A stretch of DNA of 38,236 nt from an uncultured Planctomycetaceae bacterium (GCA_964497475.1 CAZCDM010000002.1:1-38236); one strand, 5' to 3'; shown: positions 5,660 through 22,354, numbered from the stretch's first letter. The notes: generated by a model not told the origin, from the sequence alone. Program-made: numbers and translations.

Positions 5660-6236
5660 CGGTTTCACGCTGGTCGAGATTCTCCTGGTTCTGGCCGTGC
5701 TGGTGACCCTCGGCAGTGCGATGGCCGTCAGCGTGGGCGTCTATTCCCACCGGCAGGACCTTTCCGGCGCGGGCGAGCAGTTCGCCACCGCGCTGCGGAT
5801 GGCGCGGGCCGAGTCGGCCCGGCTGGGCCGGCGGCTGCGGATCGACTTTGACTCCGCCTCGACCGACGAACCCTACCCGACCGTGCTCTACGAGCCCGAC
5901 CCGCTCACCCAGCCCGCCACGTTCGTTCCGCTGGAGCGAAGCTGGGTGAAGAAGTTCGCCGACGAGCGCATCCGCGTGCTGGTCAGCCTCCGCAGCGAAC
6001 CGCGCTACGACGACGCCATCGCCACCATCGATCCCGCCACCGGCGAGGTGCTCCACTCGATCGACTTCCAGCCCGACGGCTCGGCCGACAGCGCCCAGAT
6101 CGTGCTCGCCCCGGTCGACGAAGAGGACGGCCGACGCGTGCTGGTCACCCTGGCCGCACCGGCCGGGCGAATCACCGCGCAGCTGTTCTCCGCCGAGCAG
6201 TGGCAGGACGAAGGCCCAGACCTGGAGAGCCCTTGA
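5625..6236 (+). CDS. gspH: Minor pseudopilin, GspH-like
   Basis: ORF 5526..6236; ATG 5625 gives MISPTSSRKPNSG/FTLVEILLVLAVL, a prepilin methylation motif. The following segment LSGAGEQFATALRMARAESARLGRRLRIDF resembles the GspH domain. It overlaps the gspG 3' end by 35 nt. Confidence 0.7.
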   Translation: MISPTSSRKPNSGFTLVEILLVLAVLVTLGSAMAVSVGVYSHRQDLSGAGEQFATALRMARAESARLGRRLRIDFDSASTDEPYPTVLYEPDPLTQPATFVPLERSWVKKFADERIRVLVSLRSEPRYDDAIATIDPATGEVLHSIDFQPDGSADSAQIVLAPVDEEDGRRVLVTLAAPAGRITAQLFSAEQWQDEGPDLESP

Positions 6237-6667
6237 CGCAGCCGAGACGACAACCTCGCATCCGCCGTGCGGTGGCCCTGCTGGAGGTGGTCCTGGCCAT
6301 CAGCATCGTCGTCATCGCCGCAGCCGTCATCCAGGGCAGCTACGTCGCCACCACCGCCGCGACGGCTCGCATGCAGCAGCAGGTCCGCGCGGAAAATCTC
6401 GCCGCGACCATTCTCGCCCGCGTTCGGCTCGGGCTGATCGATCCGGTTGCCGCCGGGCCGAATGATTTCGAATCGCTCTACCCCGACCGCGCCGGGTGGA
6501 CCTGGCAGATCGAGGTCGCCACCGAGCCGCTGGACACCGACGGCCCCGAAGCGACCCGCGTGGAGGTCCTCGTGACCAGCCCCGACGCACGCGTCCGCCA
6601 GCGCCTCGCCCAGTGGTTCCTCCCGGCCGTCAGCCAGCCCGCCCAAGCCATCGAGGTGGTCGAATGA
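6233..6667 (+). CDS. gspI: Minor pseudopilin, GspI-like
   Basis: ORF 6200..6667 (GTG 6200). TTG 6233 would form a TTGA overlap with the gspH stop, matching the coupling seen elsewhere in the operon. The N-terminus RRA/VALLEVVLAISIVVIAAAV has Glu at +5. Its small size (about 145 aa) fits GspI. The start is uncertain. Confidence 0.55.
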   Translation: MTQPRRQPRIRRAVALLEVVLAISIVVIAAAVIQGSYVATTAATARMQQQVRAENLAATILARVRLGLIDPVAAGPNDFESLYPDRAGWTWQIEVATEPLDTDGPEATRVEVLVTSPDARVRQRLAQWFLPAVSQPAQAIEVVE

Positions 6668-7398
6668 ACCTCGCCCGCCATCGCCATGCAGCAGGGGGGT
6701 TCACACTGCTGGAGGTTATCCTGGCTGTGTCGTTGACGGTGATGCTGGTCAGCGGACTGTTCGCGCTGTACTTCACCGGGCAGAAAACCGCCCAGGCCGT
6801 CACGCGCCGCCAGGAGCAGCTCCTGGCCCAGCGGTTGGTGATGCGGCAGATCGCCGCCGAGCTGGAGTCGGCCTTGGTCTACGGCGCGCTGGCTCGGGGC
6901 ATGGACGGCCAGCCCGACCAGGCGACCTGGCCCAGCGCAGCACTGCCCGGCCCGGCCGCGTGGATTCCTCCGCGCACCGGCCAGCCCGCCCGCGCCCCGC
7001 AGGGCGACGTGCGGTTCGTCGGCTACCGGCTGCGATACGAACAGGGCGACGACCTGGCCGAGCCGATCCTCGTCGGCCTGGAGCGAACCTGCCAGACCAT
7101 CCTCGACCCGCGCGTGATCGAAGAATCCGAGCAGGACAGTGACGCCACCGTGCGGACGCAACTGCTCTCGACGCAGATCCGCACCTTGCAATTCCGCTAC
7201 TTCAACGGCAGCACCTGGAGCGACACCTGGGCCACGCCCGACCTGCCGGCCGCGGTGGAGATCACCCTCGGCACGGACCTTCCGCCAGGCCAGGGCCAAG
7301 AGCCCGACCCGGCCACGATCGTCCGTCGCGTGGTGACGCTCCCGGCCAGCGAGGCTCTCTTCGATGGCGGCGTGCGCGGGTTGGAGGGGTCGCCATGA
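6664..7398 (+). CDS. gspJ: Minor pseudopilin, GspJ-like
   Basis: ORF 6496..7398; ATG 6664 overlaps the gspI stop (ATGA). It gives MNLARHRHAAGG/FTLLEVILAVSLTVMLVSGLF. The C-terminal segment LQFRYFNGSTWSDTW...PAAVEITL is GspJ/PulJ-like. Confidence 0.65.
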   Translation: MNLARHRHAAGGFTLLEVILAVSLTVMLVSGLFALYFTGQKTAQAVTRRQEQLLAQRLVMRQIAAELESALVYGALARGMDGQPDQATWPSAALPGPAAWIPPRTGQPARAPQGDVRFVGYRLRYEQGDDLAEPILVGLERTCQTILDPRVIEESEQDSDATVRTQLLSTQIRTLQFRYFNGSTWSDTWATPDLPAAVEITLGTDLPPGQGQEPDPATIVRRVVTLPASEALFDGGVRGLEGSP

Positions 7399-8798
7399 TC
7401 CAGCGGGCCTCCCATCGACGTGGCATGGTGCTGCTGGTGGCGCTGCTGATTGTGGCGCTGGCGTCGGCCACGGTCGGCGCGCTGGTGTTCCGCACCTCGG
7501 CCGAGTATAAATCCGTAGCCGCCGCGCATGAAGTCGACCAGGCCACCCGCGCCGCGCGCAGCGGCATCGATGCGGCCATGGCGATGATCGCCTCGCGACC
7601 CGACGACCCGCAGTTGCTGCTGGACAACCCTGCCGCGTTCGAGCATCGGCTCGTGACTGGCGAGGGCGAGGAGGGCTGGTACTTCACGGTCTTCGCGCCG
7701 CCACGCGATGGCCAGGCCGAGCCGCGCTACGGGCTCATCGACCAGGGCGGCCTGCTGAACCTCAACGTCGCCACCGCCGAGATGCTCATCGAACTGCCCG
7801 AGATGGACGCCCAACGCGTCGACAGCCTGCTGGACTGGCGCGATCCGAACCACGATGCCCGTCCCGACGGCGCGGAAGAAGAGCACTACGCACTGCTCCG
7901 GCCGATTCCGTACCGCGCGAAAAACAATCCGATCTTCACGCTCGACGAGCTGCTGTTTGTCCGCGGCTTCGATGCGACGGTGCTTTACGGAGAGGACGCC
8001 AATCGCAACGGCCTGCTCGACGAGGCCGAGGACGACGGCGAGACGAGCTTCCCGCCCGACGACGCCAACGGCGAGCTCCGCATGGGCTTATCTGCCTGCG
8101 TCACGCCCTTCAGCTACGAGTACGATGTGGACTCATCCGGCCAGCCCCGGACCAACCTCAACACAGCCCGGTCGATCAGTGGCCAGTCGCTGCCGGCCGG
8201 GCTGGATGACTTCCGCCGCGCGATGCAGGACGAGGGCGTGACCTTCACGCACCCGGCCCAGTTGCTGGAGATGACCTGGGTCCTCCAGGCCGATCATACC
8301 GACATCAATCCGCAGTGGACGCCGGGGACGATTGTTCGTTCTGGCGTGGGTGCTGCCGAGCTGCCGGCCGTGCTGGATCGGCTGACGTGCGAGCAATCGG
8401 GCGGGCCGCGCGGGGCACTGCTGGTCGGGCGGGTGAACGTTCAGACGGCCCCGGCGAAGGTTCTTGCAGCCTTGCCCGGCATGGACGACAATTTAGCTCG
8501 ACGGATCGTTGCCGAGCGGGATTCGCTCTCGGCCGAGCAACGACAAAACATAGCCTGGCTGTTCATGCAGGGCCTGGTCGACGCCGAGACGTTCCGCGCC
8601 ATCGCGCCGATGCTGACCGCCCGCGGGCTGCAGTACCGCGTCCGGTCGGTCGGGTACTGCCCGGCCCGGGGCGTGTACCGCGTGCTCGAGGCAGTGATCG
8701 ACGCGGCCCGCGAGCGCCCCCGGCTGCTGTACCTGCGGGACATCACGCCGCTGGGGCTGCCGATTGACCCGGCCGGACAGCAGGCAGGAGAACGGTAA
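7395..8798 (+). CDS. gspK: Minor pseudopilin, GspK-like
   Basis: ATGA overlap with gspJ. The hydrophobic N-terminus RRG/MVLLVALLIVALASA lacks Glu+5, as is typical for GspK. Motifs GLIDQGGLLNLNVATAEMLIELPEM and GRVNVQTAPAKVLAALPGMDDNLARRIVAER are helix-hairpin-helix-type GspK motifs. Confidence 0.75.
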   Translation: MIQRASHRRGMVLLVALLIVALASATVGALVFRTSAEYKSVAAAHEVDQATRAARSGIDAAMAMIASRPDDPQLLLDNPAAFEHRLVTGEGEEGWYFTVFAPPRDGQAEPRYGLIDQGGLLNLNVATAEMLIELPEMDAQRVDSLLDWRDPNHDARPDGAEEEHYALLRPIPYRAKNNPIFTLDELLFVRGFDATVLYGEDANRNGLLDEAEDDGETSFPPDDANGELRMGLSACVTPFSYEYDVDSSGQPRTNLNTARSISGQSLPAGLDDFRRAMQDEGVTFTHPAQLLEMTWVLQADHTDINPQWTPGTIVRSGVGAAELPAVLDRLTCEQSGGPRGALLVGRVNVQTAPAKVLAALPGMDDNLARRIVAERDSLSAEQRQNIAWLFMQGLVDAETFRAIAPMLTARGLQYRVRSVGYCPARGVYRVLEAVIDAARERPRLLYLRDITPLGLPIDPAGQQAGER

Positions 8799-10381
8799 TG
8801 AAATTCCGACGACAACGCGATCCGGCCTCGTCGGCCCCGCGGAAGTTCCTGGCCGTCGACTTCGACAGCCAGGCCATTCGCGCCATCCTTGTGACGTCCA
8901 TTGCCGGCAAGGCCCGGCTGAAGTCGTGTCACACCGCGCTGCTGGGCTCGCCCGACGAACCGCCCACGCCGGAGATCATCGGCCAGGCGCTGCGGGAACT
9001 CATCGAGGCCGAAGCTCTGCCCGACGTGCCGCTGGTGATGTCCGTGCCGCGGGGCAAGGCCATCCTCAAGCCGCTGCGTCTCCCGCCCGGCACGGCTCCG
9101 GAGGAAATCGCCGCCATGGTCCAGTTCCAGGTCCAGGGCGAGATTCCCTTCCCGCCCGATGAGACGGTCCTGGATCACACCGTCGAGGGGCCGGTCGAAG
9201 ACGCCACCGGCCAGATCGGCGTGGACGTACTGGCCGCGGCCGTGCGAAGCGACGTGCTGGAGGAGTATCGCCGGATCGCCGAGGCCGCCGGTCGACGCCT
9301 CCAGCGGCTGGGCCTGCGCCCCTACGCCAACGTCCGTTGCATCGAGGCCGAGCAGGCCAACGACCCCGCCCAGACCACGGCGCTGATCTACCTCACCGCC
9401 GACGAGACGGAGATCGACGTGCTCGAGGGCGAGCACCTGGCCTTTTGTCGCTCGGCGGTGATCGATCTCACCCAGGACGACCCGGCCCGGGCCATCGTCG
9501 CCGAAGTCGAGCGGACGCTGCAAGGCTACTCCGCCCAGCACGACGGGCGCCGGCCGGACCGGCTGCTCGTGGCTGGCGATACGGGCATGGAGGCCGATGT
9601 GGTTTCCACGCTGCGGACCGGGGGCCTGGCCGTCGAGTTCTTCACGCCCGAGTTGAGTGATGGCGTCGAAGCCGAGTCGGCTTCGGGGTTCCTCTCCGCG
9701 GCGGGCTTGGCACGCGGAGCCCGCGGGCCGGGCAAGACACCCTTCGATTTTCTCTCGCCGAAAAAGCCTCCGCAACATCGCAACCCGCAGCAGGACCGCA
9801 CCGCCGCCATCGCGGCGGCCGTCATCGGTGCGGTCCTGCTGCTTGCCGTCGGCGGGTGGTGGTATCTTGGCACCCTCCGCGACGAGGTCGAGTTCCAGCT
9901 CCGTAAGAAGAAGGACCTCGCCAGGAAGGTCGAGAAGACCGAGGCCCTGATCAAGCGAGTCGATCCGATCATCGAATGGGTCGACGAGTCGGTCGGCTGG
10001 CTGGATCACCTGCGGAACCTCACGGTGATCCTGCCCGACGCGCGGGATGTGTACATCGATCAGTGGCGGACGGGCAAGGACTTCGTCCAGTTCACCGCCC
10101 GCGCGCGGGACAGCGTCGTGGTCGATCGGCTCGTCAAGGATCTCCAGGAAGCCGGCTACGCGCCCAAGACCAACAAAGATGGCCTGGAAGAAGACAACCC
10201 CTTCGGCTATGTGCGTCACACCGAGATCAGCGTCTTCGTGCCGACCGAGTGGCCCGAAGACCTCATGGTTCGTCAGCCCCCGCCGCGCCCGGCCGATGAC
10301 GATCTCGACTGGTCGCTCGACGAGGCCCGCCACGAACTCCGCCGCGCCCGCCAGCAGGAACAGCAGAGGGACGAACAATGA
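8798..10381 (+). CDS. gspL: Assembly-platform protein: PilM/GspL-like cytoplasmic actin-fold domain fused to a transmembrane helix and a PilN-like periplasmic region
   Basis: TAATG overlap with gspK. The N-terminus KFLAVDFDSQAIRAILV resembles the PilM/GspL phosphate-1 strand. A single TM segment follows (AAIAAAVIGAVLLLAVGGWWYLG). After it come a coiled segment (EVEFQLRKKKDLARKVEKTEALIKRV) and a periplasmic domain. Confidence 0.65.
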   Translation: MKFRRQRDPASSAPRKFLAVDFDSQAIRAILVTSIAGKARLKSCHTALLGSPDEPPTPEIIGQALRELIEAEALPDVPLVMSVPRGKAILKPLRLPPGTAPEEIAAMVQFQVQGEIPFPPDETVLDHTVEGPVEDATGQIGVDVLAAAVRSDVLEEYRRIAEAAGRRLQRLGLRPYANVRCIEAEQANDPAQTTALIYLTADETEIDVLEGEHLAFCRSAVIDLTQDDPARAIVAEVERTLQGYSAQHDGRRPDRLLVAGDTGMEADVVSTLRTGGLAVEFFTPELSDGVEAESASGFLSAAGLARGARGPGKTPFDFLSPKKPPQHRNPQQDRTAAIAAAVIGAVLLLAVGGWWYLGTLRDEVEFQLRKKKDLARKVEKTEALIKRVDPIIEWVDESVGWLDHLRNLTVILPDARDVYIDQWRTGKDFVQFTARARDSVVVDRLVKDLQEAGYAPKTNKDGLEEDNPFGYVRHTEISVFVPTEWPEDLMVRQPPPRPADDDLDWSLDEARHELRRARQQEQQRDEQ

Positions 10382-11439
10382 AGCCCGACCGCAAACTTCT
10401 GCTCCGCGTGGCCGGCGTCCTGGCGGCGCTGGTGGTGGCCTACTTCTTTGTGGACTACTTCCTGCTTGCCCCGGCCGGGGCCTACCGCGAGCGGGCCGAC
10501 CGCCTGCGTCGGGAAAATCGTCAGTGCGAGTACTTTCTTACGAAGGAGGGCACGTATCGCCGCCGGCTCAAGGACATCGCCGGGCGAACCTTCGGCACGG
10601 ATCCCCTGGCCGTTCGCGAAGCCATCCGTGTCCGCATCGACAAGATGGTCTCCGCCAGCGGCATGCGACGCGGCACGACGGCCAGTTCGCCCGTGGTCGG
10701 CCGACACAAGAAAGACAGCTACCAGGAGATCGGCTGGAAGTACGACCTCATCGGCAAGTTGCCCCAGGCCATCGACATGCTCTACCTGCTCCGCGAGGAC
10801 CCGTACCTGCATCGCATTGAAGGCCTGACCCTCACGCCCACCGGCGAGAGCAATGAGGTCAAGCTCGACTTCCGCTATATGACCCTCGTGCTGGAACCCC
10901 GCAAGGGGGAGACGCTGCCCACCGGCGACCCGGAAACCCCCAAGCCCATCGCCGAACTCGGCGAGCCGCGCAATCGATACGACCCCATCGCCCGGCGGAA
11001 CATCTTCCGGCCGTACATCCGCAAGCGGGCCGAACAACCCCTTGCCAGCCAGCCCGCCGACCCGTCCGGCGAGCCGCCCGTCGCAGATTCCGGCCAGGGC
11101 GGACGCTTCCGCGTCGTGAGCCTCAGTCGGTTCGGAACCCGGCAGGATATTTCAGTTCGAGACTCGCAGACCGGGGAGGTTCAGATGTATAATCCTGGGG
11201 ATGCCTTGGGTGGTGGCACGATCGTGATGGTCGACCAGCGCAGCATGCCCGACCCCGGCAAGCCGGAACTGCTTTCGCCCAGCCGACTGATCATTCGCAT
11301 CGGCCAGCAGTACTTCGCCGTCGAACTCGGTCAGACGCTGGACGAGAAGAACCGCCTCGCCCCGGATCAGCTGCCCGCGTCGTTCCGTCCCGCCGGCGCC
11401 CGGAACAATATTCCCTCGCCCGATGGTGCGGCAGGGTAA
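10378..11439 (+). CDS. Bitopic assembly-platform protein: GspM/PilO-like N-terminal half, Pro-rich linker, GspC-HR/PilP-like C-terminal beta domain (tentative)
   Basis: ATGA overlap with the preceding gene. TM helix LLLRVAGVLAALVVAYFFVDYFLLAP, then a linker QPLASQPADPSGEPPVADSG. The C-terminus FRVVSLSRFGTRQDISVRDSQTGEVQMYNPGDALGGGTIVMVD...LIIRIGQQYFAVELGQTL resembles the secretin-N0-binding HR/PilP fold pattern. Confidence 0.5.
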   Translation: MKPDRKLLLRVAGVLAALVVAYFFVDYFLLAPAGAYRERADRLRRENRQCEYFLTKEGTYRRRLKDIAGRTFGTDPLAVREAIRVRIDKMVSASGMRRGTTASSPVVGRHKKDSYQEIGWKYDLIGKLPQAIDMLYLLREDPYLHRIEGLTLTPTGESNEVKLDFRYMTLVLEPRKGETLPTGDPETPKPIAELGEPRNRYDPIARRNIFRPYIRKRAEQPLASQPADPSGEPPVADSGQGGRFRVVSLSRFGTRQDISVRDSQTGEVQMYNPGDALGGGTIVMVDQRSMPDPGKPELLSPSRLIIRIGQQYFAVELGQTLDEKNRLAPDQLPASFRPAGARNNIPSPDGAAG

Positions 11440-11483: not shown

Positions 11484-11672
11484 ATGCAAGGAACGCGAAC
11501 CGTCATCTGCAGCGTGGTGCTTGTACTGGCCTCGCTCGTCCAGGCCGAGTCGGCCTCTCAGCCCGCCGCAACGCAGCCGGCCTCGGCGCCCGCGGCCCAG
11601 CCCGCCTCACAGCCGAAACCCGCGCCAACCCCGGCCGCTGCCGCTCCGGCATCCAAGCCGCAGCCCGAGCCG
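11484..11672 (+). other. Secretin signal peptide (11484-11546) plus low-complexity Pro/Ala/Gln linker (11547-11672)
   Basis: Signal peptide MQGTRTVICSVVLVLASLVQA / ES. Linker ASQPAATQPASAPAAQPASQPKPAPTPAAAAPASKPQPEP. Confidence 0.7.
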
Positions 11673-14600
11673 ACCTTCGTCTTCCAGTTCGCCGGCGCGC
11701 CCTACACCGATGTCGTCCGCCGCTTCGCCCAGGCGCTCGGCAAGCCGCTCATCGGCGACCTCAACATCGAAGGCGAACTCCACTTCACCGACGAGAAGGC
11801 CTACACCGCCAGCCAAGCCCAGGATGTGCTGAACCTGCTGCTGGCCATGCGCGGCTATGTGCTGCGACCGCAAGGCCGATTCCTCCGCCTCATGCCCCTG
11901 GCCGACGTGCCCGGCGATACCCGCATCCTCCGAGGCCTCGCCGAAGCCCAGAGCGAAGACGTCTCCCCTGGTGAAATCGTCACCATGGTCCTGCCGCTGA
12001 AATTCCTCGACCCCGACGAAGCCTCCAAGAGTGTCATTCGGCTGGTCTCGCCGTTCGGTTCGATCTCGCCGCTGCCCGGCTCGCGGGCGATGGCGATCAC
12101 CGACCGGCTCGACAACATCCGGCGCATCGACGCGATGCTACAGATCATCGATACGCGCACCGTCGTCGACAAGGAACTCAAGACCGTCTCTCTCACCCAC
12201 GCCTCGGCCCAGACCGCCGCAGGGCTGGTCAACAGCATGTTTGGCGCGCAGCAGCAGGGCAACCTCGTCTACGACCCCAAGCAGAAGAAGATGGTCCCCC
12301 GGCAGGTCGACGCCCGGGAGATCGTCACCACCAGCTTCGACGACCGCACCAATGTTGTCGTCCTGCTCGGCACGCCGGAGCGGCTGGCCATGGCCGAGGA
12401 AATGCTCCGCACCCTCGACCAGGCCAAGACTCCCTCGCAGTTCGAGACGCGCATCTTCCAGCTCGGCCAGGCCCAGGCCGCCGACCTCGCCCGCACCATC
12501 GGCCAGCTCCTGCCGCCTCCGCCCAAAGGCCAGCAACCCCCGCGCCTGGCTCCCCAGGCCAACACCAACCGCCTCGTCGTCTCCGCCCCGGCCGAGCAGC
12601 TCACGCAGATCGCCTCGCTCATCGCCGAGCTGGACACCGCCTCGAAGCAGACTGAAGGCCTGAAGATTGTCGAACTCAAGCACGCCGACGCGAACCACCT
12701 CGCCCACCCGCTGCACCGCTCGCTGGCTCGCCGCGACGAGCGAGGCCGTCTGCACTACCCCGTCCACGTCCATGTCATTCCTGGCACGAACCAGTTGATC
12801 CTCACCGGCCCGCAGGCTGAACTCAACGCCGCCATGGACCTGCTCGCTCGCCTCGACACCGAAGCCGTCGCCGAAGCACGCGAGGTCCATGTCATCCAGC
12901 TCGCCTCGGGCGATGCCTACCACGTCGCCCGTTCGCTGTCTCGCATCTTCAACACCCCCGGCCAGACGGCCCGCCTCGTCGTCGAGGCCGAACGCGACAC
13001 CAACAGCCTGATGATCTCCGCCTCGCCGGACGACTGGCCCGAGATACGCAAGACCCTCGACGACCTCCAGCAGACCGCCACGGAAATCAAAACGCCCGTG
13101 ACGCGCATCGTCCCGCTCGCCCACGTCAAGGCGGGCGCTCTGGCCCGCACGCTCCAGCGGGCCGTGGCCAGCCGGCACTGGGGGCGTCGCGGTGCGGGCA
13201 CGGTACCAATCTTCATCCACGCCACGCCCGGCGATGACGCGCTTCTGATCACCGCCGCACCGAGCGAGCAGCAGCAGGTCGCCGCGCTGATCGAAACCCT
13301 CGACAAGCCAACTGAAAACATCGAGCCGATGACGATGGTCTCACTGACCAGCGCCAAGGCCGACGAACTCGCCAACCGGCTTCGCTCGCTGCTGCCCGAA
13401 GCCCACGGCCGCGATGCCACCGTCTTCATCCAGGCCGACCCCGCCACCAACACCGTCCTGCTGCGGGCCCCCCAGGCTCGCCGCCAGGCCATCACCGACC
13501 TCATCGACAAGCTCGACAAGGCCACGCTCGAAACCGCCCGCGAGACACGCATGGTCCAACTGACCAATACCTCCGCGGCCGCGCTGGCTCAGACGCTCCA
13601 GCAGCTCTACCCTCGGCCCGGCCGGGGCGTGGCGCCCATCGAAGCCGTCATCATCACCGCCGCCCCCAGCGACCAGTCGCTGCTCATCGAGGCCGCCCGC
13701 TCCCGCGTCGATGAGGTCGTCCAGCTCGCCGAGACCCTCGACGCCAAAGACAAGACCCAGCCCATCGAGGTCCGCATCTACCAGGTCGACGAAGGCTCGG
13801 CCGACGATGTCGCCCGGACGCTGGGCAACCTCTTCGCTCGACAGAATCGTCGGCGGCACTCCGTCGCAGCCGGCGAGCCCGCCCCGCGCTTCGAGTTCAA
13901 CCAGGCCACCAGCCAGGTGCTCGTCGCAGCCACGCCCGATCAGTTCGAACGCATCGATAAGCTCATGCAGAAAATCCAGTCCGCCGGCCGCTTGGCCCAG
14001 CAGACCCGCACCTTCCAGTTGCAGTACGCCCAGGCCGACGAACTCGTCCGCCTGCTGCAGACCGTCCTGCCCGACCAGACCACCGGGCGCCGGCGAGGCC
14101 GACAGGGCAATGCCCTTCGCGTAGCGGCCATGCCCACGGCCAATGCCGTCGTCGTCCAGGCCCAGCCGGATAAGCTCGCCCTCGCCGAGCAGATCATCAC
14201 CACCTTCGACACCAAGGCCGCCAGCGAGCGGACCACCATCCGCGTGGTCCAGCTGAAAAAGGCCCAGGCCGAAACCCTCGCCCGATCCGTCGGGCAGACG
14301 CTCGAAACGCGCGGGGCCGATGGCGTGGCCGTCACCGCCGAGACCAACTCCAACAGCGTGCTCGTCCGAGGCCCGGCCGAGCGCGTCGACGAGGTCCTGG
14401 CGATGATCCGCAAGCTCGACGCCGACAGCACCTCCGAGGATGTGCAGGTTTATGTCTACCCGCTGAAGAACGCCAACGCCAAGCAGCTCGCGGGCAATCT
14501 CGAGCAGATGTTCCGCGCCCTGCTTCGCCAGCTCGGCCGGCGCGGCGAGAGCGTTTTCTCCGTCGCCGCCAACGACCGCACCAACAGCCTGCTCATCGCC

Positions 14601-17600
14601 ACCAAGCCCGCCTCCTATGCCATGGTCGAGAAGATGCTCCGCGACCTCGATCAGACCGACCAGGCCGCCCGCGATGTCGAGTACATCGTCCTCCGCAGTG
14701 CCGATGTCTCCGAGGTCAGCCGGCAGCTGTATGACATGTTCCGCGATCGGCCCTGGAACGATCGGCCGGTCGTTCAGATGGACCGCGAGTCCAACGCCCT
14801 GACGCTCATCGGCACGGAGACCGACCTGGCCACGATGGCCAAGGTCGTCACCAAGCTCGACACCGCCGCCGCCCGGGCCGCCGTTCGCGTCCGCGTCGTG
14901 CCGCTTGATGACGTCGACGCCAAGAAGATGGCCGAGATGATCCGCCGGCTCTACGCGCAGATGACCGACAGCCCCATCGTCGTCGCCGAGAACCTCACCG
15001 CCGCTCAGACCCAGCCGGCCACCCAGCCGACGGCCCAGCCGGCGATTACCATCGCCTACGACACCACCGCCAACACGCTGCTGCTGTCCGGCCCGAAGCG
15101 TGACCTCGACGAAATCGAATCGCTCGTCTCGCAGCTGTCGTGGGGTACGAACATCGCCGAGGCCGAGTACCGCGTATTCACCGTCGCCAAGGCCAGTCCC
15201 GTCGAGGTCGCCCGCACGCTCGATGAACTCTTCAACCCGCAGGACGGCAATCGTCGCCGCCGGGCCGAGCCCAACATCGTCGCCGTGCCCGAGACGCGCA
15301 CTCGCAGCGTCATCGTCAAGGCCAAGCCCACCGACTTCGCCGCCATCGAACCGCTCATCGCGAAGATCGATTCCGCCGGCGGTGACGAGACCTACTTTGT
15401 AAAGGTCTACGCGCTGAGCAACGCCCGTGCCCCCCAGGCCGCCGCCGCACTGCAGCAAACCTTCCTTGCCGAGCCCGGCCGTCACGGCCGGGGCCAGGCC
15501 GACACGCCCACCGTCCGCATCAGCCCCGAACCCAGCAGCAACACGCTGGTCGTCCGGGCCGACAAGGCCGACCACGCCAAGATCGCAGACCTCATCAAGG
15601 AGATCGACATCTCCAGCGTCGCCGAGCTGCCCGTGCGGATGATTCCGCTCCGCCATGCCGACCCGGCCCCGCTCGCGGCCATGCTCAACCGCCTCTACGC
15701 GCCGCGGAACCGGCGGCAGGGCAGCGAGGTCCGCATCGAAGCCGACGCCGACGCCCGCACGCTCATGATCCGTGCCGACGATGAATCCTTCGAGAAGATC
15801 CGCAAGCTCGCGACCACGCTCGACGCCAGCAGTACCGTCGGCCAGGCCAACCAGACGCTGCTGCGTCTCGAGCACGCCCAGGCCGACACCGTCGCTGCCT
15901 CGCTCCAGCAGGCGTTCCTGCCCCGGCGGGGCCAGCGCATCACCGCCGAGGACCTCGTGACCGTCGTGGCCGAGCCGGCCAGCAACAGTCTCATCGTCAC
16001 GGCCAACGAGCCGAACCTCAAGAAGGTCCGCGCCCTGGTCGACCAGCTCGACACCGAAGAGGCCGGCACCGTGAAGACCGAGTTCTTCCTGCTGACCAAC
16101 GCCCAGGCGACGGACCTGGCCGCCGTGCTTCAGCGAGTTACCGGCGCGACCGGTCGCCGAGGTCGCGGCCAGGCCGGGCCCGAGCTGCGCATCTCCGCCG
16201 AGCCGGCCAGCAATGCCCTGGTTCTTTCCGGCCCGGCCAGCCAGGTCTCCGAAATGATGCAGATGGCCATCCAGCTCGACCAGGCCGCCCAGGCCACTAC
16301 GCCCGGCGTCTACATCATCCCGCTGGACAGCGGCGACGCCGAGTCGATGGTCGCCATGATCCGCGACCTGCACAACCAGCAGCGGGCCGCGGCCCGGCGG
16401 ACGAAGAACGACGTCGAGCCCCTGGCCGTCTCGGCCGACGCCCGGGCCAATGCGATCGTCCTGGCCTCCAGCAAAGACATGTACGAGCAGGTCCAGCAGT
16501 GGGTCCGCCATCTGGAACAGATGAAGCCCCGCCGCGGCGAGGTCCGCGTGATTCCGCTCGAGCATGCCGACCCGGCCGAGGTCCAAAAGGCCATCGATCA
16601 GCTCAACGGCCAGGCTGCCCCGGCCGCCCGGCCAGGCCGACGCGCCCAGGCAGGCAGCTCTCCGTTCGAGGTGACCGTCCTGCCCAGGCAGCAGGCGATC
16701 ATGGTCACCGGCAGCGACGCCGACTTCCAGGCCATCCAGAAGCTCATCGAAACCCTCGAAGCCTCGGCCCGCAAGACCCAGCGCACCAGCCGCATTATCG
16801 TACTCAAGCACGCCAACCCCCAGCGGGTCGTCCAGGCGCTGGCGCCGGTGCTGCGAACCACCCGCTACAGCCAGGGCCAGCAGCCGCCGAGCATCTCCGC
16901 GATGGCCGATTCCAACGCCGTTGTCGTCGCAGCCACCAAGGAGCAGATGGACGAAGTCGGCAAGCTAATCCAGCAGCTCGACTCGCCCGAGGTCGCCCAG
17001 GACCTGACCTTCCGCGTGTTCACCCTGACCAACGCCCAGCCGACGAAAATCGTCCCCACCCTCCAGCGGATGCTGCGGCAGCTCCAGCGGGCCCATCCTG
17101 GTACGCAGATCGACGTCCAGGCCGACGAGCGAACCCGCGCGCTGATCATCACCGCCAAGGAAGGCCTCTTCGATCAGATTGCCCGGCTGGTCGAGACGCT
17201 GGACAAGGCCCCCGCCTACGCCCAGGCCGACGTGCTCATCATCCCGCTCCGCCGGGCCGACGCGACGCAACTGGCCCGCGTGCTGCAGGACATGCTCCGC
17301 CCGGACGGCAATCAGATCACCGCCGAGGCCCGCGCCCTCCAGGAGCAGGTCCGCCTGCTGCAGGTTCGCAGCACGATGAAGGAAACCCTCCCGCCGCTGG
17401 ACTTGACCAAGCCAATCAAGATCGACGCCGACCCCGCCCGTCCCCAGGGAACCAACTCGCTGATTCTCTCGTCCACGCCAAAGAACCTCGACGCCCTGGC
17501 CGCCATCGTCGACGTGCTCGACACCGTGCCCCTCACCGCCGGTGTGAAGGTCAAGCTCATCCATCTGACCAATGCCGACGCCGTCAGCGTGCGGGACATC

Positions 17601-20600
17601 CTGCGGGATGTCTTCGCCCAGGGCCGGCGCCTGGCCGGCCAGCCGGGCCAGAGCACCGCCGGCCGGGCCGAGCCGGAATCGACGACCGGCAAGGCGCTGG
17701 TCAAGACGCTGAACATCTCGGCCGACACGCGCACCAACAGCCTGATCCTCTCCGGCGAGGAGGACGTCCTGGCCCTGGCCGACCTGCTGGTCAAAGACCT
17801 CGACCGCGAGAAGGGCAAGGTCGTCACCGAGATTCGCCTCTTCCGGCTGGACCATGCCGACGCAACGCGGCTGGCTCCGACGTTGCAGGCCGTCTTCGCC
17901 GAGCGGGGCCGGAACCCCGCCGCCGAGGGCGTCCAGACGCAGGTCACCCGGCTGCGGACGCATCTGGCCGGTAAGGATGGCAAGGCCGACCTCCAGGAGA
18001 GCGATTTTCCGAAACTGCACCCGGCCTTGTCGATCCGCGCCGAGGGCGGGACGAATATGCTCGTCGTCGCCGCCCGCAGCGACGTCATGCCCCTGATCGC
18101 CGACGTCGTCAAGAGCATGGACATCCCCGGGGCCGGCTCGATGAACCAGGTGCGGATCTTCCCGCTGGTCCATGCCGACGCGACCCGGCTGGACGGCGTG
18201 ATCCGCTCGCTCTACACCGGCCCCAATGCCAAGCTCGTCCGCGACGAAGATCGACCCACCGTCGCCGTCGACACCCGCACCAACTCGTTGATCGTCTCGG
18301 CCAGCGAGAAAACGTTCTCGATGCTGACGACGCTGCTCGGCCGGCTCGATGCCAAAACCCCCGTTGAGCTGCGCGACCTCCGCCTCCTGCCGCTGGAAAA
18401 CGCCGAGGCCCTCACCGTCGCTTCGATCCTCCAGCGGATGATGGACGCCCGCGTGCAGCGCCAGCAGTCGCTCGGCCTGAAAGACGCCGAAGCCCTGCGG
18501 ACGGTCATCCTCGCCGATGCACGATCGAACAGCCTGATCGTCGGCGGCTCGACTGAGAGTTTTCAGATCGTCCGCGACCTCGCGACGAAGCTGGATACAG
18601 CCAGCCCGGCCCTGGCCGGTCAGGTCCAGGTCCTGCCGCTGGAGGAGGGCAACGCGGCGACCATTGCGACAACGCTGAGCCGACTCTTCGCCCAGCGGTA
18701 CCAGGCGGCCCGCACGGCCGAGATCAAGCGGCAGCGCCCCGTGATCCTGCCCGACCTGCGGACCAACAGCCTGCTCGTGGCGGCCACGGCCGATGACTCG
18801 AAGATCCTCAAGAGTCTCCTGCAGCGCCTCGACGTCAAGCTGACCGACCCGGCGGTGCAGCTGACGGTCATCCCGCTGGAATACAATGATGCCGGCGTGA
18901 TCGGCCCGGAAATCGGCCGGCTGTTCGCCGCCCGCCTGCGGAGCATGACCCCCGCCGACCAGACACCCAGTCCGCAGGATCGCGTGGACGTGGCCATCGA
19001 CTCGCTGAGCAATTCGCTGATCGTCTCGGCCAGCAAGGAGAACCTCGGGCTCATTCGCGAGCTGCTGGCCAAGGTCGATGTTGCCCCGGCCGACGAGACC
19101 GGCGTGGTGCGGATGTATCCGCTCAAGCACGCCGACGCCCAGCGCGTCGCGACGATGCTGCGAGGCCTGCTCGACCAGGGGCTCTACAAGCCCGGGCTGG
19201 TCGGCTCGGCCAACCAGGCCGCCACCATCAAGGCCCGCGAGAAGGTCTCCCTGGCCGTCGACGCCCGCATGAATGTGCTGATCGTCTCAGCCAGCCGAGA
19301 GAACTTCTCGATCCTCGAACAGATCATCGCCAAGGTCGACTCCGACGAGAGCTTCGGCTTGCTGGGCGATATCCAGGTCTTCCCGCTGAAGCATGCCGAC
19401 GCAGCCCGCCTGGCGCCGACGCTGCAGGCTTTCTTCCGCCAGAAGCGGGCCGCCGAGGAGTCCACTGGCTCGACCGGCCGATCGCTGCCGGTGGTCGTCC
19501 TTCCCGACAGCCGGACCAACGCGCTGCTCGTGGCCGGCAGCCGGGAGAGCTTCGCAGCCGTGAAGAACATCATCGCCCGGCTGGACACGGACGACTCGGC
19601 TCCGGCGACGGACTTCCGCGTTTTCGAGCTCAAACACGCCACCGCCCAGCGGCTCCAGGGCACGCTGCAGAAGCTCTTCGACGACCGCACCGTCCGAGGC
19701 CAGGGCAAGGACAAGGTCTCGATCCTCGCCGACCCGCGGAGCAATACGCTCATCGTCGGGGCCACGCCGGACGAGATGGAACTCGTCGCGTCGATGGTCC
19801 ATCGCCTCGATAAGCCCAGTGACGACGATCGCCAGCTCGTGAAGATCTACCCCCTGGCCAAGGCCGACGCCGTCCAGGCCCTCGACACCCTCAAGAGCCT
19901 CTACCGCTCCGGCGGTGGCGACCCCAACGACCTTTCGCTGACGGCGGACGAGCGCATCAATGCGATCATCGTCTCGGCCGGCGTGGAAGATCAAAAACGC
20001 ATCGCCCAGCTCGTCGATCAGCTCGACCGCGACAAGGTCACTCGCGTCACGGAAATCCGCGTCTTCCCGCTGGACAATGCCGACGCCGAGGAACTCGCCG
20101 CGCTGCTGATGGACGTGCTGACCGAAAAGCCCAAGGCGCTGACCAAGGTCAGCCCCAACCGTCAGACGCTGCTGCAGTTCATTCGCCGCACGCCGGCGGG
20201 CAAGAATCTCATCACATCGGCCCTGCAGGAGGGCGTGCTGATCACGCCCGACAAACGGACCAATGCACTGGTCGTCTCGGCCCCGCTGGACAACATGCCG
20301 CTGCTGTCGAGCATGATCTCCTCGCTCGACTCGGCCAGCCCGCGGGCGGCGGAAATTCGCGTCTTTGCTTTGCAGAATGCCGACGCGGCACGGATGGCGG
20401 AGGTTCTCGCCCAGCTGTTCCGCTTCGAGGACAAAGCCGGCACCGACCGCGAAGGCCCGGCCGTCAAGTACACCCTCGCCGACGGCCAGCTCGCCTCGGC
20501 CACCACCGGCCAGGTCGACCAGGCCAGCCTGAACATCACCGTCGATACCCGCACCAACAGCCTGCTCATCGGTGGCTCGCCGGAGCAGTTGGACATGGCT

Positions 20601-21896
20601 GCGGCCGTGATTACCCGCCTCGATGCCTCCCCCGGCCAGGAGCGCGTCACCCGTGTGTATCGGCCCAAGAATGCCCAGGCTTCGAACATCGAGAAAACCG
20701 TCCGCGCCTTTCTTGACCAGGAACGCCAGCGGCTGGTCTCGACGCTCGGCAAGGACAACCTCGACGCCGCCCAGCGGATGCTCGAGCGGGAAGTGGCCGT
20801 CGTGGCCGAGGAAGAATCCAACACGCTGCTGCTCTCGGCCAGCCCGCGGTACTTCCAGACGCTGGGCCAGATGATCGAGGAGCTCGACCAGCCGCCTGCC
20901 CAGGTGCTCGTCCAGGCCCTGCTGGCGGAGGTCCGGCTGGACAACGACTCGACCCTCGGCGTGGACTGGGGCTGGCAGACGACCTACCGGAGCAACCTCA
21001 TCGAGGGTGGCTCGAACATGTCGGTCCGGGCGTCGCTCGAGGCGGGCAATCCGATTGGTTTTAATGTCTCGGTCACCGGCGGCGACCTGAACTTCTTCCT
21101 GCGGGCGCTGCAGCAGCAGAACCGCGTGGAGGTTCTCAGCCGGCCGCAGATTCTCGCAGCCAACAATCAGTCGGCCCTGATCGAAGTCGGCCAGCGCGTG
21201 CCGCTGATCACCAACAGCCGCGTAACCGACCAGGGCGATACGATCAACACGATCACCTACGAGCAGATCGGCGTGCAGCTGGAGATTCTCCCGCGGATTG
21301 GTTCGGACGGCTCGGTGCGGATGGAGGTCAAGCCGACCATTTCTTCCGTGAGCAAATCCTTCACGCCGATCACGCAGTTCGCCGAAGCACCGTACATCAA
21401 CAACCGGGCCGCTCAGACCACCGTGACCTGCCAGGACGGCCAGACGATCATCATCGGCGGGCTGATTACCACGACCGACGAAGACCGCGAAGACAAGGTG
21501 CCCATCCTGGGCGACATTCCGCTGATGGGCCTGCTGTTCCGCAACACGACCAAAACCAAGAACCGCAGCGAGCTGTTGATCTTCCTCACGCCGCACATCC
21601 TCCGCAACGGGGGCGACCAGAACTCGGTGACCACGCGGGAGCTGAAGGATAATGACACGCTGCGTTCGTTGAAGATGAATCATCCGTACAAGGATCGCGC
21701 GCTGGATACCTTTACCGACGAAGCCCTGCGTGACATGGTCAACCAGGAATCCCGCACCCTGCCCGATACCAACACCGAGAGGCGCCTGCGGAACGTTCAC
21801 GATACGGTGATCGAGCTGGAGCTGCTGCCTGAAGAGTGGATTGACGAAACCTGGAAGCCTGGCGACCCCGCTCCGGTGGAGAAAGAAGTGGAATGA
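11484..21896 (+). CDS. gspD: Giant secretin (GspD family) with an N0 domain, about 37 tandem secretin N-domain-like modules, a secretin beta-barrel core and a C-terminal tail
   Basis: Uninterrupted ORF 11454..21896. The likely start is ATG 11484, with aaaggag at 11471-11477. See the sub-features below. The core carries hallmark secretin motifs: VLVQALLAEV, VLSRPQILAANNQSALIEVGQRVP, GVQLEILPRI, IIIGGLI...KVPILGDIPLMGLLF and SELLIFLTPHIL. Confidence 0.9.
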   Translation: MQGTRTVICSVVLVLASLVQAESASQPAATQPASAPAAQPASQPKPAPTPAAAAPASKPQPEPTFVFQFAGAPYTDVVRRFAQALGKPLIGDLNIEGELHFTDEKAYTASQAQDVLNLLLAMRGYVLRPQGRFLRLMPLADVPGDTRILRGLAEAQSEDVSPGEIVTMVLPLKFLDPDEASKSVIRLVSPFGSISPLPGSRAMAITDRLDNIRRIDAMLQIIDTRTVVDKELKTVSLTHASAQTAAGLVNSMFGAQQQGNLVYDPKQKKMVPRQVDAREIVTTSFDDRTNVVVLLGTPERLAMAEEMLRTLDQAKTPSQFETRIFQLGQAQAADLARTIGQLLPPPPKGQQPPRLAPQANTNRLVVSAPAEQLTQIASLIAELDTASKQTEGLKIVELKHADANHLAHPLHRSLARRDERGRLHYPVHVHVIPGTNQLILTGPQAELNAAMDLLARLDTEAVAEAREVHVIQLASGDAYHVARSLSRIFNTPGQTARLVVEAERDTNSLMISASPDDWPEIRKTLDDLQQTATEIKTPVTRIVPLAHVKAGALARTLQRAVASRHWGRRGAGTVPIFIHATPGDDALLITAAPSEQQQVAALIETLDKPTENIEPMTMVSLTSAKADELANRLRSLLPEAHGRDATVFIQADPATNTVLLRAPQARRQAITDLIDKLDKATLETARETRMVQLTNTSAAALAQTLQQLYPRPGRGVAPIEAVIITAAPSDQSLLIEAARSRVDEVVQLAETLDAKDKTQPIEVRIYQVDEGSADDVARTLGNLFARQNRRRHSVAAGEPAPRFEFNQATSQVLVAATPDQFERIDKLMQKIQSAGRLAQQTRTFQLQYAQADELVRLLQTVLPDQTTGRRRGRQGNALRVAAMPTANAVVVQAQPDKLALAEQIITTFDTKAASERTTIRVVQLKKAQAETLARSVGQTLETRGADGVAVTAETNSNSVLVRGPAERVDEVLAMIRKLDADSTSEDVQVYVYPLKNANAKQLAGNLEQMFRALLRQLGRRGESVFSVAANDRTNSLLIATKPASYAMVEKMLRDLDQTDQAARDVEYIVLRSADVSEVSRQLYDMFRDRPWNDRPVVQMDRESNALTLIGTETDLATMAKVVTKLDTAAARAAVRVRVVPLDDVDAKKMAEMIRRLYAQMTDSPIVVAENLTAAQTQPATQPTAQPAITIAYDTTANTLLLSGPKRDLDEIESLVSQLSWGTNIAEAEYRVFTVAKASPVEVARTLDELFNPQDGNRRRRAEPNIVAVPETRTRSVIVKAKPTDFAAIEPLIAKIDSAGGDETYFVKVYALSNARAPQAAAALQQTFLAEPGRHGRGQADTPTVRISPEPSSNTLVVRADKADHAKIADLIKEIDISSVAELPVRMIPLRHADPAPLAAMLNRLYAPRNRRQGSEVRIEADADARTLMIRADDESFEKIRKLATTLDASSTVGQANQTLLRLEHAQADTVAASLQQAFLPRRGQRITAEDLVTVVAEPASNSLIVTANEPNLKKVRALVDQLDTEEAGTVKTEFFLLTNAQATDLAAVLQRVTGATGRRGRGQAGPELRISAEPASNALVLSGPASQVSEMMQMAIQLDQAAQATTPGVYIIPLDSGDAESMVAMIRDLHNQQRAAARRTKNDVEPLAVSADARANAIVLASSKDMYEQVQQWVRHLEQMKPRRGEVRVIPLEHADPAEVQKAIDQLNGQAAPAARPGRRAQAGSSPFEVTVLPRQQAIMVTGSDADFQAIQKLIETLEASARKTQRTSRIIVLKHANPQRVVQALAPVLRTTRYSQGQQPPSISAMADSNAVVVAATKEQMDEVGKLIQQLDSPEVAQDLTFRVFTLTNAQPTKIVPTLQRMLRQLQRAHPGTQIDVQADERTRALIITAKEGLFDQIARLVETLDKAPAYAQADVLIIPLRRADATQLARVLQDMLRPDGNQITAEARALQEQVRLLQVRSTMKETLPPLDLTKPIKIDADPARPQGTNSLILSSTPKNLDALAAIVDVLDTVPLTAGVKVKLIHLTNADAVSVRDILRDVFAQGRRLAGQPGQSTAGRAEPESTTGKALVKTLNISADTRTNSLILSGEEDVLALADLLVKDLDREKGKVVTEIRLFRLDHADATRLAPTLQAVFAERGRNPAAEGVQTQVTRLRTHLAGKDGKADLQESDFPKLHPALSIRAEGGTNMLVVAARSDVMPLIADVVKSMDIPGAGSMNQVRIFPLVHADATRLDGVIRSLYTGPNAKLVRDEDRPTVAVDTRTNSLIVSASEKTFSMLTTLLGRLDAKTPVELRDLRLLPLENAEALTVASILQRMMDARVQRQQSLGLKDAEALRTVILADARSNSLIVGGSTESFQIVRDLATKLDTASPALAGQVQVLPLEEGNAATIATTLSRLFAQRYQAARTAEIKRQRPVILPDLRTNSLLVAATADDSKILKSLLQRLDVKLTDPAVQLTVIPLEYNDAGVIGPEIGRLFAARLRSMTPADQTPSPQDRVDVAIDSLSNSLIVSASKENLGLIRELLAKVDVAPADETGVVRMYPLKHADAQRVATMLRGLLDQGLYKPGLVGSANQAATIKAREKVSLAVDARMNVLIVSASRENFSILEQIIAKVDSDESFGLLGDIQVFPLKHADAARLAPTLQAFFRQKRAAEESTGSTGRSLPVVVLPDSRTNALLVAGSRESFAAVKNIIARLDTDDSAPATDFRVFELKHATAQRLQGTLQKLFDDRTVRGQGKDKVSILADPRSNTLIVGATPDEMELVASMVHRLDKPSDDDRQLVKIYPLAKADAVQALDTLKSLYRSGGGDPNDLSLTADERINAIIVSAGVEDQKRIAQLVDQLDRDKVTRVTEIRVFPLDNADAEELAALLMDVLTEKPKALTKVSPNRQTLLQFIRRTPAGKNLITSALQEGVLITPDKRTNALVVSAPLDNMPLLSSMISSLDSASPRAAEIRVFALQNADAARMAEVLAQLFRFEDKAGTDREGPAVKYTLADGQLASATTGQVDQASLNITVDTRTNSLLIGGSPEQLDMAAAVITRLDASPGQERVTRVYRPKNAQASNIEKTVRAFLDQERQRLVSTLGKDNLDAAQRMLEREVAVVAEEESNTLLLSASPRYFQTLGQMIEELDQPPAQVLVQALLAEVRLDNDSTLGVDWGWQTTYRSNLIEGGSNMSVRASLEAGNPIGFNVSVTGGDLNFFLRALQQQNRVEVLSRPQILAANNQSALIEVGQRVPLITNSRVTDQGDTINTITYEQIGVQLEILPRIGSDGSVRMEVKPTISSVSKSFTPITQFAEAPYINNRAAQTTVTCQDGQTIIIGGLITTTDEDREDKVPILGDIPLMGLLFRNTTKTKNRSELLIFLTPHILRNGGDQNSVTTRELKDNDTLRSLKMNHPYKDRALDTFTDEALRDMVNQESRTLPDTNTERRLRNVHDTVIELELLPEEWIDETWKPGDPAPVEKEVE
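11673..20888 (+). repeat. Protein-level tandem array: N0-like domain followed by about 37 diverged 70-106 aa secretin_N / ring-building-motif-like modules
   Basis: Each module shows the same pattern. It starts with a beta strand (e.g. VRVFPL, IRVVQL, VKIYPL) and a helix (xADAxxLAxxLxxLF). A variable Arg/Gly/Gln-rich loop follows, then a strand (DxRTNSLIVSA and variants) and a helix ending in LD or ID (e.g. IAELD, LARLD, IETLD, IDKLD, LGRLD, VDQLD). I counted 37 such terminators by eye. The copies are strongly diverged, with no near-identical copies in the translation. Confidence 0.8.
20889..21600 (+). other. Secretin C-domain (outer-membrane beta-barrel and gate region)
   Basis: From QPPAQVLVQALLAEVRLDNDSTLGVDWGW to ELLIFLTPHIL. 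These are the conserved secretin family motifs listed for the CDS above. Confidence 0.88.
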
Positions 21897-22354
21897 TTCG
21901 CTCGGCCCTGATCGTGGTTGTTTCGGCGGTGCTGATCGCCTGCGGCCCGCCGCGGACGCCGACGGTCGATCATGTCCAGCTGGTCATGCCGCCCCAGCCC
22001 GTCGATATCGAAAGCACGGCTGGGCCCGACGGCGTCCAGGCCCGCGTGTTCCTCTACCAGGGCCCCAACGCCCAGACCGTCCTGGGCGACGGGCGATTGG
22101 ATATCCTGCTGTTCGACGGCCGACTGAACCAGGCCGGGCCCAAGACCGACCCCGTCCCGCTGAAGGTCTGGAGCTACACCCCCGAACAGCTTCAGCGGTT
22201 CCAGTCGCAAACCATTGGCCTGTGGAACTACAATCTCATGCTGCTCTGGGGTGACGCTCGCCCGACGCAAAACATCGTCACCGTTATTGCTCGCTACACC
22301 GCGCCGTCGGGCCAGCAGGTTTTTTCATCGCCCGTTCAAGTGCCGATCCGCTGA
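21893..22354 (+). CDS. Small lipoprotein translationally coupled to the secretin (candidate pilotin or accessory factor)
   Basis: ATGA overlap with the secretin stop. N-terminus MIRSALIVVVSAVLIAC with lipobox LIA/C, followed by GPPRTP. The mature part is about 135 aa and looks beta-rich. I recognise no family. Confidence 0.6.
   Translation: MIRSALIVVVSAVLIACGPPRTPTVDHVQLVMPPQPVDIESTAGPDGVQARVFLYQGPNAQTVLGDGRLDILLFDGRLNQAGPKTDPVPLKVWSYTPEQLQRFQSQTIGLWNYNLMLLWGDARPTQNIVTVIARYTAPSGQQVFSSPVQVPIR

Follow-up and report, generated by a model that had tools for sequence, protein, structure and literature searches.

The locus described here raises the question of what a secretin with 37 tandem N-domain modules is, and what an array of that length could build within a cell envelope. 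It lies in a stretch of DNA of 38,236 nucleotides from an uncultured Planctomycetaceae bacterium (GCA_964497475.1, CAZCDM010000002.1:1-38236), which was analyzed over its whole length and is referred to herein as the window, and the gene in question occupies positions 11484-21896 of the + strand. Canonical GspD, the secretin that belongs to type II secretion systems (T2SS), has ~650-750 amino acids (aa) and carries an N0 domain and domains N1-N3, whereas the window protein has 3,470 aa and 37 N-type modules in place of three. To our knowledge, every characterized secretin has at most about six periplasmic rings. By all sequence-level criteria the window protein is a T2SS secretin of the GspD family, and comparison with its relatives indicates that it belongs to a giant subfamily in which the N1-N3 region has grown to 20-56 modules, with 37 in the window protein. 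We see in the giant secretin a known machine that has been elaborated, and not a new kind of system. Below we present the evidence for its architecture and for the family to which it belongs, put forward a mechanism that we consider the most parsimonious, and weigh the other ways in which such an array could be arranged.

Domain architecture and coding integrity of the giant secretin

The open reading frame (ORF) runs without interruption for 10.4 kb on the + strand, from a GTG at 11454 or an ATG at 11484 to position 21896, and the ATG is the likely start because the sequence AAAGGAG sits 6 nt before it. The original prediction, which was made from the sequence alone, had claimed a single uninterrupted ORF of about 3,470 aa encoding a signal peptide, a Pro/Ala/Gln linker, an N0-like domain, a long series of ring-building modules, a barrel core and an acidic tail, and each of these elements was confirmed by the analysis, as follows.

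11484..21896, + strand: giant secretin ORF, 3,470 aa; the mature form has a calculated mass of ~376 kDa and an isoelectric point of 6.0
11484..11546, + strand: Sec signal peptide, aa 1-21, read by eye and not with a predictor as MQGTRTVICSVVLVLASLVQA, followed by E
11547..11675, + strand: Pro/Ala/Gln-rich spacer, aa 22-64, from sequence composition
11676..11933, + strand: N0 domain, aa ~65-150, a weak PF21305 match on its own and matched by a homologue profile
11961..12161, + strand: module 0, the N1 equivalent, aa ~160-226, aligned to residues 107-204 (N1) of XcpQ
12177..20891, + strand: 36 consecutive Secretin_N modules, aa 232-3136, placed by a hidden Markov model (HMM) grown from the protein itself
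20892..21605, + strand: secretin beta-barrel core, aa ~3137-3374, from PF00263, AlphaFold2 and Foldseek
21606..21893, + strand: acidic C-terminal tail of 96 aa, with 23 D/E and 13 K/R

The assignment of N0 is based on homologues. The PF21305 model gives the single sequence 17.6 bits, which is under the Pfam cutoff of 27, while a profile of N-terminal homologues searched against the PDB sequences matched N0-N1 of XcpQ/GspD with an E-value of 1.8e-42, and PF21305 is present in orthologues. The spacer is a further difference from canonical GspD, and a P/A-rich, low-complexity spacer of 40-100 aa also precedes N0 in the aligned full-length N-terminal homologues. Module 0, which was aligned to the N1 domain of the Pseudomonas protein XcpQ, is diverged, and the module HMM recognizes only half of it. 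The 36 modules placed by this HMM are of 62-98 aa each and are separated by linkers of 7-9 aa, and the Pfam Secretin_N model (PF03958) finds 36 independent stretches with a total of 1,197 bits. The number of 37 modules that had been counted by eye was therefore right, being made up of these 36 and the diverged N1-like module. The Secretin model (PF00263) finds one domain (aa 3208-3374, E 2e-50), and the barrel core that had been placed at 20889-21600 agrees with the end of the last module at 20891 and the end of PF00263 at 21605. The acidic tail is predicted by AlphaFold2 to be helical with low confidence and has no family match; its position would be that of the pilotin-binding S-domain in GspD. 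The score with the NCBIfam equivalog model for GspD (TIGR02517) is 1,251 bits (cutoff 351) and is inflated by the repeats, with the best stretch covering model positions 126-600.

Structure prediction is in agreement with these assignments. For the C-terminal 521 aa (aa 2950-3470, 24 sequences), AlphaFold2 gave a model with a predicted local distance difference test score (pLDDT) of 69 and with higher confidence for the barrel and the last N-domain. The model consists mainly of beta strands from about aa 3140 (model residues 191-424), with residues 206-251 modeled at low confidence. In Foldseek searches its top PDB matches are the T2SS GspD structures 5zdh, 6hcg and 5wq7 (E 1e-24 to 1e-26), and the secretins of type III secretion systems and type IV pili rank below them. 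A second model covers four modules (aa 2219-2537, 19 sequences), with an input alignment made of non-overlapping four-module windows and orthologues, and it has a pLDDT of 86 and a predicted template modeling score (pTM) of 0.67. Each module in this model forms one beta-alpha-beta-beta-alpha unit, and every significant Foldseek match is a secretin N-domain, the best being those of GspD, ExeD, EpsD and XcpQ. The secretin N-domain fold proposed for the modules is thus borne out by Pfam, by the four-module model and by Foldseek.

The characterized proteins GspD, PulD, XcpQ and EpsD (5wq7, 5zdh, 6hcg, 5wln) accordingly provide the best sequence and structure matches to the window protein, with which they share N0, beta-alpha-beta-beta-alpha N-domains, a barrel core and a C-terminal tail. 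The genetic context is also alike, as the giant gene lies near the end of a complete T2SS operon of the type GspE-F-G-H-I-J-K-L, also on the + strand and upstream of it, in which starts and stops mostly overlap. The presence of GspK, together with the fact that no PilN, PilO, PilP or PilT gene was detected by domain searches of the window, argues that the system is a T2SS and not a type IV pilus. Identity as a type IV pilus secretin was rejected on this operon content, since GspG, GspH, GspJ and GspK are all present.

Six of the modules are longer than the rest. Modules 23-25 (17232-18125) and 34-36 (20055-20891) reach 81-98 aa owing to insertions of 15-30 aa, and those of modules 35 and 36 are placed after helix 1 in the AlphaFold2 model. 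The insertion in module 23, ITAEARALQEQVRLLQVRSTMKETLPPLDLTKP, is conserved in the fragments P0288 and P0293. If the modules stack, such insertions may represent constrictions, gates or binding sites.

A gene of this size on a metagenomic contig must be shown to be free of assembly artefacts. The module paralogues within the window protein share a mean pairwise identity of 25%, with a maximum of 44%, and Tandem Repeats Finder run on the 10.4-kb gene returned only trivial short repeats and no tandem repeat at the DNA level. The low identity between modules and the lack of repetition in the DNA leave no basis for an expansion or collapse of the array by the assembler. In addition, the same 38-kb contig was recovered in two samples, the exact protein is recorded at both NCBI and JGI, and a strong Shine-Dalgarno sequence precedes the secretin gene, which shows translational coupling to its neighbors on both sides.

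Distribution and conservation of the family

Two surveys were used to place the window protein among its relatives. In the first, a profile of its C-terminal 521 aa was searched against the GTDB species representatives, giving 80 loci that were taken with 10-kb flanks, and for each locus the stop-to-stop ORF was measured and its modules were counted. Giant secretin ORFs occur in most of the 80 loci, and in most of those labeled Phycisphaerae, Planctomycetota or Verrucomicrobiota (Limisphaerales and others). Ten of the giant ORFs are complete within the flanks, with 2,418-3,949 aa (the largest at locus L028) and 22-36 modules, and about 40 extend beyond the 10-kb flank at the 5' end and already have 37-44 modules. 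In at least eight of the latter N0 lies at the edge of the flank, which implies proteins of ~3,900-4,000 aa. Two of the records with giants are titled as chromosomes (CP070772.1 and OZ245825.1). In the second survey, the first 1,200 aa of the window protein were searched with HMMER against 1.84 billion cluster representatives, which gave 458 proteins at E <= 1e-30. Among the best 150 of these 458, 110 have both N0 and the core, with 2,349-5,532 aa (median 4,054) and 20-56 modules (median 38); examples of such giants are P0121 (5,063 aa), P0122 (5,277 aa) and P0125 (5,532 aa). Hence, the window protein is a median-sized member of its family, and the impression of a singular oddity given by the original prediction needs to be corrected, as the family is large and reaches 5,532 aa and 56 modules.

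The number of N-domains in the homologues, for which that prediction had called for a survey, differs between lineages. The giants have 20-56, the Planctomycetia loci (Fuerstiella, Schlesneria and Pirellulales; L069-L080) have 5-7 in proteins of ~1,170-1,420 aa, and in the Sumerlaeota loci two modules were detected in proteins of ~700 aa. The medium-sized Planctomycetia secretins, for which only sequences were compared, share with the window protein the family of the C-terminal domain (33-38% identity), the type of module and the presence of T2SS genes nearby, and differ from it in the number of modules and in total size. The giants in metagenome-assembled genomes of Phycisphaerae, Verrucomicrobiota and other members of the Planctomycetes-Verrucomicrobia-Chlamydiae superphylum, on the other hand, are true orthologues: their modules are colinear with those of the window protein, and N0, the core and the 8-aa linker are shared. 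They differ from the window protein in the number of modules, by insertion or deletion of blocks.

The colinearity is extensive. In seven orthologues with 36-56 modules, the best partners are colinear for 30-36 of the 36 HMM-placed modules of the window protein, and two shorter orthologues give 20 and 25 colinear matches. Differences in size correspond to blocks of modules gained or lost, as in P0121, where ten extra modules lie between window modules 8 and 9. Orthologous modules are up to 0.76 identical, compared with an average of 0.38 for the best paralogue, and their mean identity is 0.43 for modules 1-12, 0.50 for modules 13-24 and 0.60 for modules 25-36. From this positional orthology we conclude, at the level of sequence, that the array is ancient and that each module has its own conserved identity. 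The linkers are similarly constrained, since 81% of 5,096 family linkers are of 7-9 aa and half are of exactly 8 aa, the mode, and a length that stays near 8 aa across the family indicates that the spacing of the modules is under strong selection.

Some related genes appear in pieces. At L082 (378-12397 of a 192-kb contig) and L083 (1-11611 of a 108-kb contig), 10-12 kb of Secretin_N coding sequence is divided among 8-10 consecutive ORFs, and every piece carries Secretin_N, which points to frameshift errors or pseudogenization. Searches of the protein catalogue with C-terminal, N-terminal and internal segments returned nothing longer than 910 aa, all of it fragmentary, since the contigs are mostly short, and the catalogue entries of 400-900 aa from the split genes are their last pieces. 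That the seemingly short relatives on long contigs might be genuine short paralogues was considered and rejected, as they are pieces of these split 10-12-kb genes.

The giants bear automatic names only, such as 'type II secretion system protein D', and we found no description of giant multi-N-domain secretins in full-text literature, a result that is suggestive only as most subscription journals lay outside the search. This is in line with the earlier statement that no characterized secretin of such architecture is known, and the giant secretin family of Planctomycetota and Verrucomicrobiota is apparently undescribed.

Possible arrangement of the array in the envelope

N1-N3 in every solved secretin, and N0-N5 in Thermus PilQ, form rings. 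By analogy, we put forward a hypothetical mechanism in which the giant secretin forms a stacked-ring conduit linking the inner-membrane platform to the outer membrane, which we consider the most parsimonious explanation of the array and to which we assign a probability of roughly one half. We propose that 12-15 protomers assemble, as in known secretins, and that each module contributes one homo-oligomeric ring, with the rings stacked as one continuous tube. The inner-membrane platform would be the docking site of N0 at the far end, with the two conserved proteins encoded just upstream as candidate partners. The pseudopilus of GspG, GspH, GspI, GspJ and GspK would grow inside the tube, and folded substrates would be pushed by it toward the gated barrel of the outer membrane. 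If a ring contributes 3-4 nm, a value that we estimate by loose scaling from the length of the Thermus complex, the tube would extend for 110-150 nm with 37 rings and for more than 170 nm with 56, and a 15-mer complex would have a mass of ~5.6 MDa.

The sole characterized precedent that we found is PilQ of Thermus thermophilus, in which extra N-domain rings likewise lengthen the periplasmic part; it is a 13-mer with six stacked rings (N0-N5) and a length of 350 Å, which is described as allowing it to reach across most of a wide periplasm (PMC5745081). The window protein differs in having 38 domains, known from sequence, compared with six rings, and in its operon, which is that of a T2SS, while PilQ belongs to a machine for type IV pili and DNA uptake.

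Several properties of the family are consistent with a stack of rings. Positional orthology would be expected, as the lateral contacts of each ring would co-evolve within one module, and the fixed length of the linker fits such a tube. The pTM of the four-module model suggests a defined geometry between modules, and stretches of two and three modules superpose on the N1-N2 and N0-N1-N2 crystal structures of XcpQ with a root-mean-square deviation (rmsd) of 5-8 Å.

Other results weigh against the stacked-ring conduit. The AlphaFold2 models are of monomers only, so that ring formation by the extra modules is hypothetical, and the four-module model superposes poorly on whole GspD chains determined by cryo-electron microscopy, with an rmsd of ~40 Å that is uninformative on stacking. 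In a direct-coupling analysis pooled over 3,573 adjacent module pairs, contacts within modules were strong and reproducible and the couplings between modules were weak, the top score of 1.05 being marginally higher than those of the controls (0.73 for i+2, 0.59 for i+3 and 0.46 for i+5). The linkers are rich in A, P, G and E and have no conserved sequence, a composition typical of flexible linkers. Moreover, the exact length of the array is not critical, since the number of modules ranges from 20 to 56 through insertions and deletions of blocks. Finally, it is difficult to see how a normal periplasm could accommodate a tube of 110-150 nm. The original prediction had tentatively linked the length of the array to the enlarged periplasm of planctomycetes, as reported for Planctomycetia (PMC7716846; PMC11131199). 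This link is weakened by the distribution of the family, as the loci labeled Planctomycetia have secretins with 5-7 modules and the giants are found in those labeled Phycisphaerae and Verrucomicrobiota, and a 2025 review (PMC12673574) says of internal membranes that they 'appear to be absent in Phycisphaerae'.

The strongest form of the proposal, in which a rigid nanotube of 100-200 nm with 300-850 ring-building domains per complex traverses or follows the periplasm in Phycisphaerae and Verrucomicrobiota, is put forward tentatively, as a possibility that we rate as less than even. If true, it would constitute a previously unseen organelle of the envelope that moves a pseudopilus and folded substrates over several periplasm widths, and it would require either periplasmic compartments that are locally very deep or a pipeline that lies oblique or parallel to the membranes.

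Among the alternatives, the one that survives best, which we nevertheless think unlikely, is that the array serves as an extensible tether. Stable rings would then be formed only by the modules nearest to the outer membrane, with the others strung like beads or forming a loosely ordered, telescopic sleeve, so that the pore in the outer membrane stays joined through N0 to the inner-membrane platform as the distance between the membranes varies. Such an arrangement would account for the climb in conservation toward the C-terminus (0.43, 0.50 and 0.60), for the flexible type of linker, for the tolerance of block insertions and deletions over 20-56 modules, and for the weak couplings between modules. 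It is less readily reconciled with linkers of which 81% are within 7-9 aa and with the fact that the N-terminal modules are also positional orthologues, two properties that argue for a defined geometry over a generic spacer, or with the pTM of 0.67 of the four-module model.

The stacked-ring conduit can also be set against a different superstructure, which we regard as improbable, where lateral or multilayer packing of the modules gives a short, wide periplasmic chamber, a lattice or a scaffold. This could act as a staging cage or docking rack for many secreted hydrolases, or as an anchor to the cell wall. The attraction of such packing is one of size. The 555 modules of a complex (15 x 37) would give a length of 110-150 nm only if they are single-layered with ~15 around, and a normal periplasm would have room for an assembly that is wider or built in several layers, which would reconcile the size of the protein with the report that Phycisphaerae apparently lack internal membranes. 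The six modules with conserved insertions of 15-30 aa could in that case be sites of interaction. There is, however, no precedent for it, as the solved secretins all have one ring per N-domain (PMC5745081 among them), and both the 8-aa linker and the superposition on the extended N0-N1-N2 crystal structures fit packing from end to end, as in the stacked-ring conduit.

The weakest alternative, which treats the array as an error of assembly, with the repeat misassembled or expanded, or the gene as a pseudogene from which no single polypeptide is expressed, draws on the shortness of the window contig (38 kb) and on the related genes that are broken into 8-10 ORFs on 108- and 192-kb contigs, and is to our minds scarcely credible: it was rejected and is effectively already refuted by the divergence of the modules (~25% identity) without DNA repetition, the recovery of the contig in two samples, the existence of intact ORFs of 2,349-5,532 aa, colinear in module order, in 110 independent cluster representatives, the strong Shine-Dalgarno sequence and translational coupling on both sides, and a conservation across phyla that implies purifying selection.

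Operon, host and significance

The genes that surround the secretin in the T2SS operon are as follows.

2188..3906, + strand: GspE-type secretion ATPase (PF00437 T2SSE, E 6e-139) with an MshEN domain
3922..5124, + strand: GspF platform protein (PF00482 T2SSF, two stretches, E 5e-58)
5147..5659, + strand: GspG major pseudopilin (PF08334 T2SSG, E 1e-21) with the N_methyl motif
5526..6236, + strand: GspH minor pseudopilin (PF12019 GspH, N_methyl), whose true start is likely downstream of the ORF start
6200..6667, + strand: putative GspI-like minor pseudopilin, located between GspH and GspJ and hydrophobic in its N-terminal segment
6496..7398, + strand: GspJ minor pseudopilin (PF11612 T2SSJ, N_methyl)
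7395..8798, + strand: GspK minor pseudopilin (PF21687 T2SSK_1st and PF03934 T2SSK)
8798..10381, + strand: GspL-like assembly-platform protein (PF11104 PilM_2, actin-like cytoplasmic domain, E 5e-13)
10378..11439, + strand: conserved protein of 353 aa that has a hydrophobic segment at the N-terminus and no family match
21893..22354, + strand: lipoprotein of 153 aa (lipobox LIAC); its ATG and the secretin stop overlap (ATGA)

The true start of GspG is probably the internal Met right before MKRTTTNRLAFTLIEV. The GspI-like protein has only a trace of an N_methyl match (E 7.7), and its presumed identity follows from its position and hydrophobic segment. Directly upstream of GspE, and overlapping its start at 2188, there is also an ORF of 438 aa (897-2213, + strand), for which neither a Pfam family nor a homologue in the 80 related loci was found, and which may or may not belong to the operon.

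The operon differs from that of a canonical T2SS in having two conserved unannotated genes next to the secretin in place of recognizable GspC, GspM and pilotin genes, as no member of these families could be recognized among the neighbors of the secretin by searches of Pfam and the PDB sequences. The first is the 353-aa protein, for which profile searches of Pfam and the PDB sequences gave no match. Its homologues lie directly upstream of the giant secretins in L027, L028, L030 and L051, and it has a conserved C-terminal region (RYD..I.RR..FRP ... SRLI.R....AVE.GQ.L). Its position raises the possibility that it is a GspC/GspM analogue and the partner of N0. The second is the 153-aa lipoprotein, for which the same profile searches of Pfam and the PDB sequences gave no match and no pilotin family. 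Homologues of it are encoded immediately downstream of the secretin in 34 of the 80 related loci, these being the loci where its presence could be checked, and in L082 an unannotated ORF of 166 aa overlaps the secretin stop. We consider the lipoprotein a candidate for a new pilotin or secretin accessory protein.

The remainder of the window is chromosomal and of a housekeeping nature, with genes for a Kdo transferase, ilvC, a proB-like amino-acid kinase with a PUA domain, and others. It also contains a set of redox and anaerobic genes (28181-29437 +, 30427-31695 + and 34952-37998 -), which encode a thioredoxin-Redoxin/AhpC fusion, a protein with an ODP beta-lactamase fold and flavodoxin, whose domain combination suggests a flavodiiron protein, and the anaerobic ribonucleotide reductase NrdD, next to which a radical-SAM protein is a candidate activase. 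The set suggests that the host is an anaerobe or microaerophile. The closest C-terminal homologues are labeled Phycisphaerae or Planctomycetota, as is L001, the sole locus that shares the downstream synteny, and the host is probably a member of the Phycisphaerae (Planctomycetota). It should be noted that between about 10000 and 24000 the giant gene has a strongly negative GC skew (-0.1 to -0.2) and a positive AT skew, with the minimum of the cumulative GC skew at ~22-23 kb, where the skew changes sign. This pattern probably reflects the composition of a long gene on the + strand rather than a landmark of replication.

Secretins rank among the most thoroughly studied machines of the bacterial outer membrane. 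The significance of the giant secretins lies in the fact that lineages of Planctomycetota and Verrucomicrobiota conserve, position by position, a number of domains equivalent to 20-56 rings. Users of metagenomic catalogues should be aware that many of the 'secretin' entries with 400-900 aa are pieces of giant genes, and for the T2SS itself the two conserved unannotated partner proteins are potential new components. The family also poses a structural problem, namely how an assembly of 4-9 MDa, which is possibly more than 100 nm long, is to be placed in the envelope. These organisms include abundant degraders of polysaccharides, which must export folded enzymes, and the giant secretins may be the route by which they do so.

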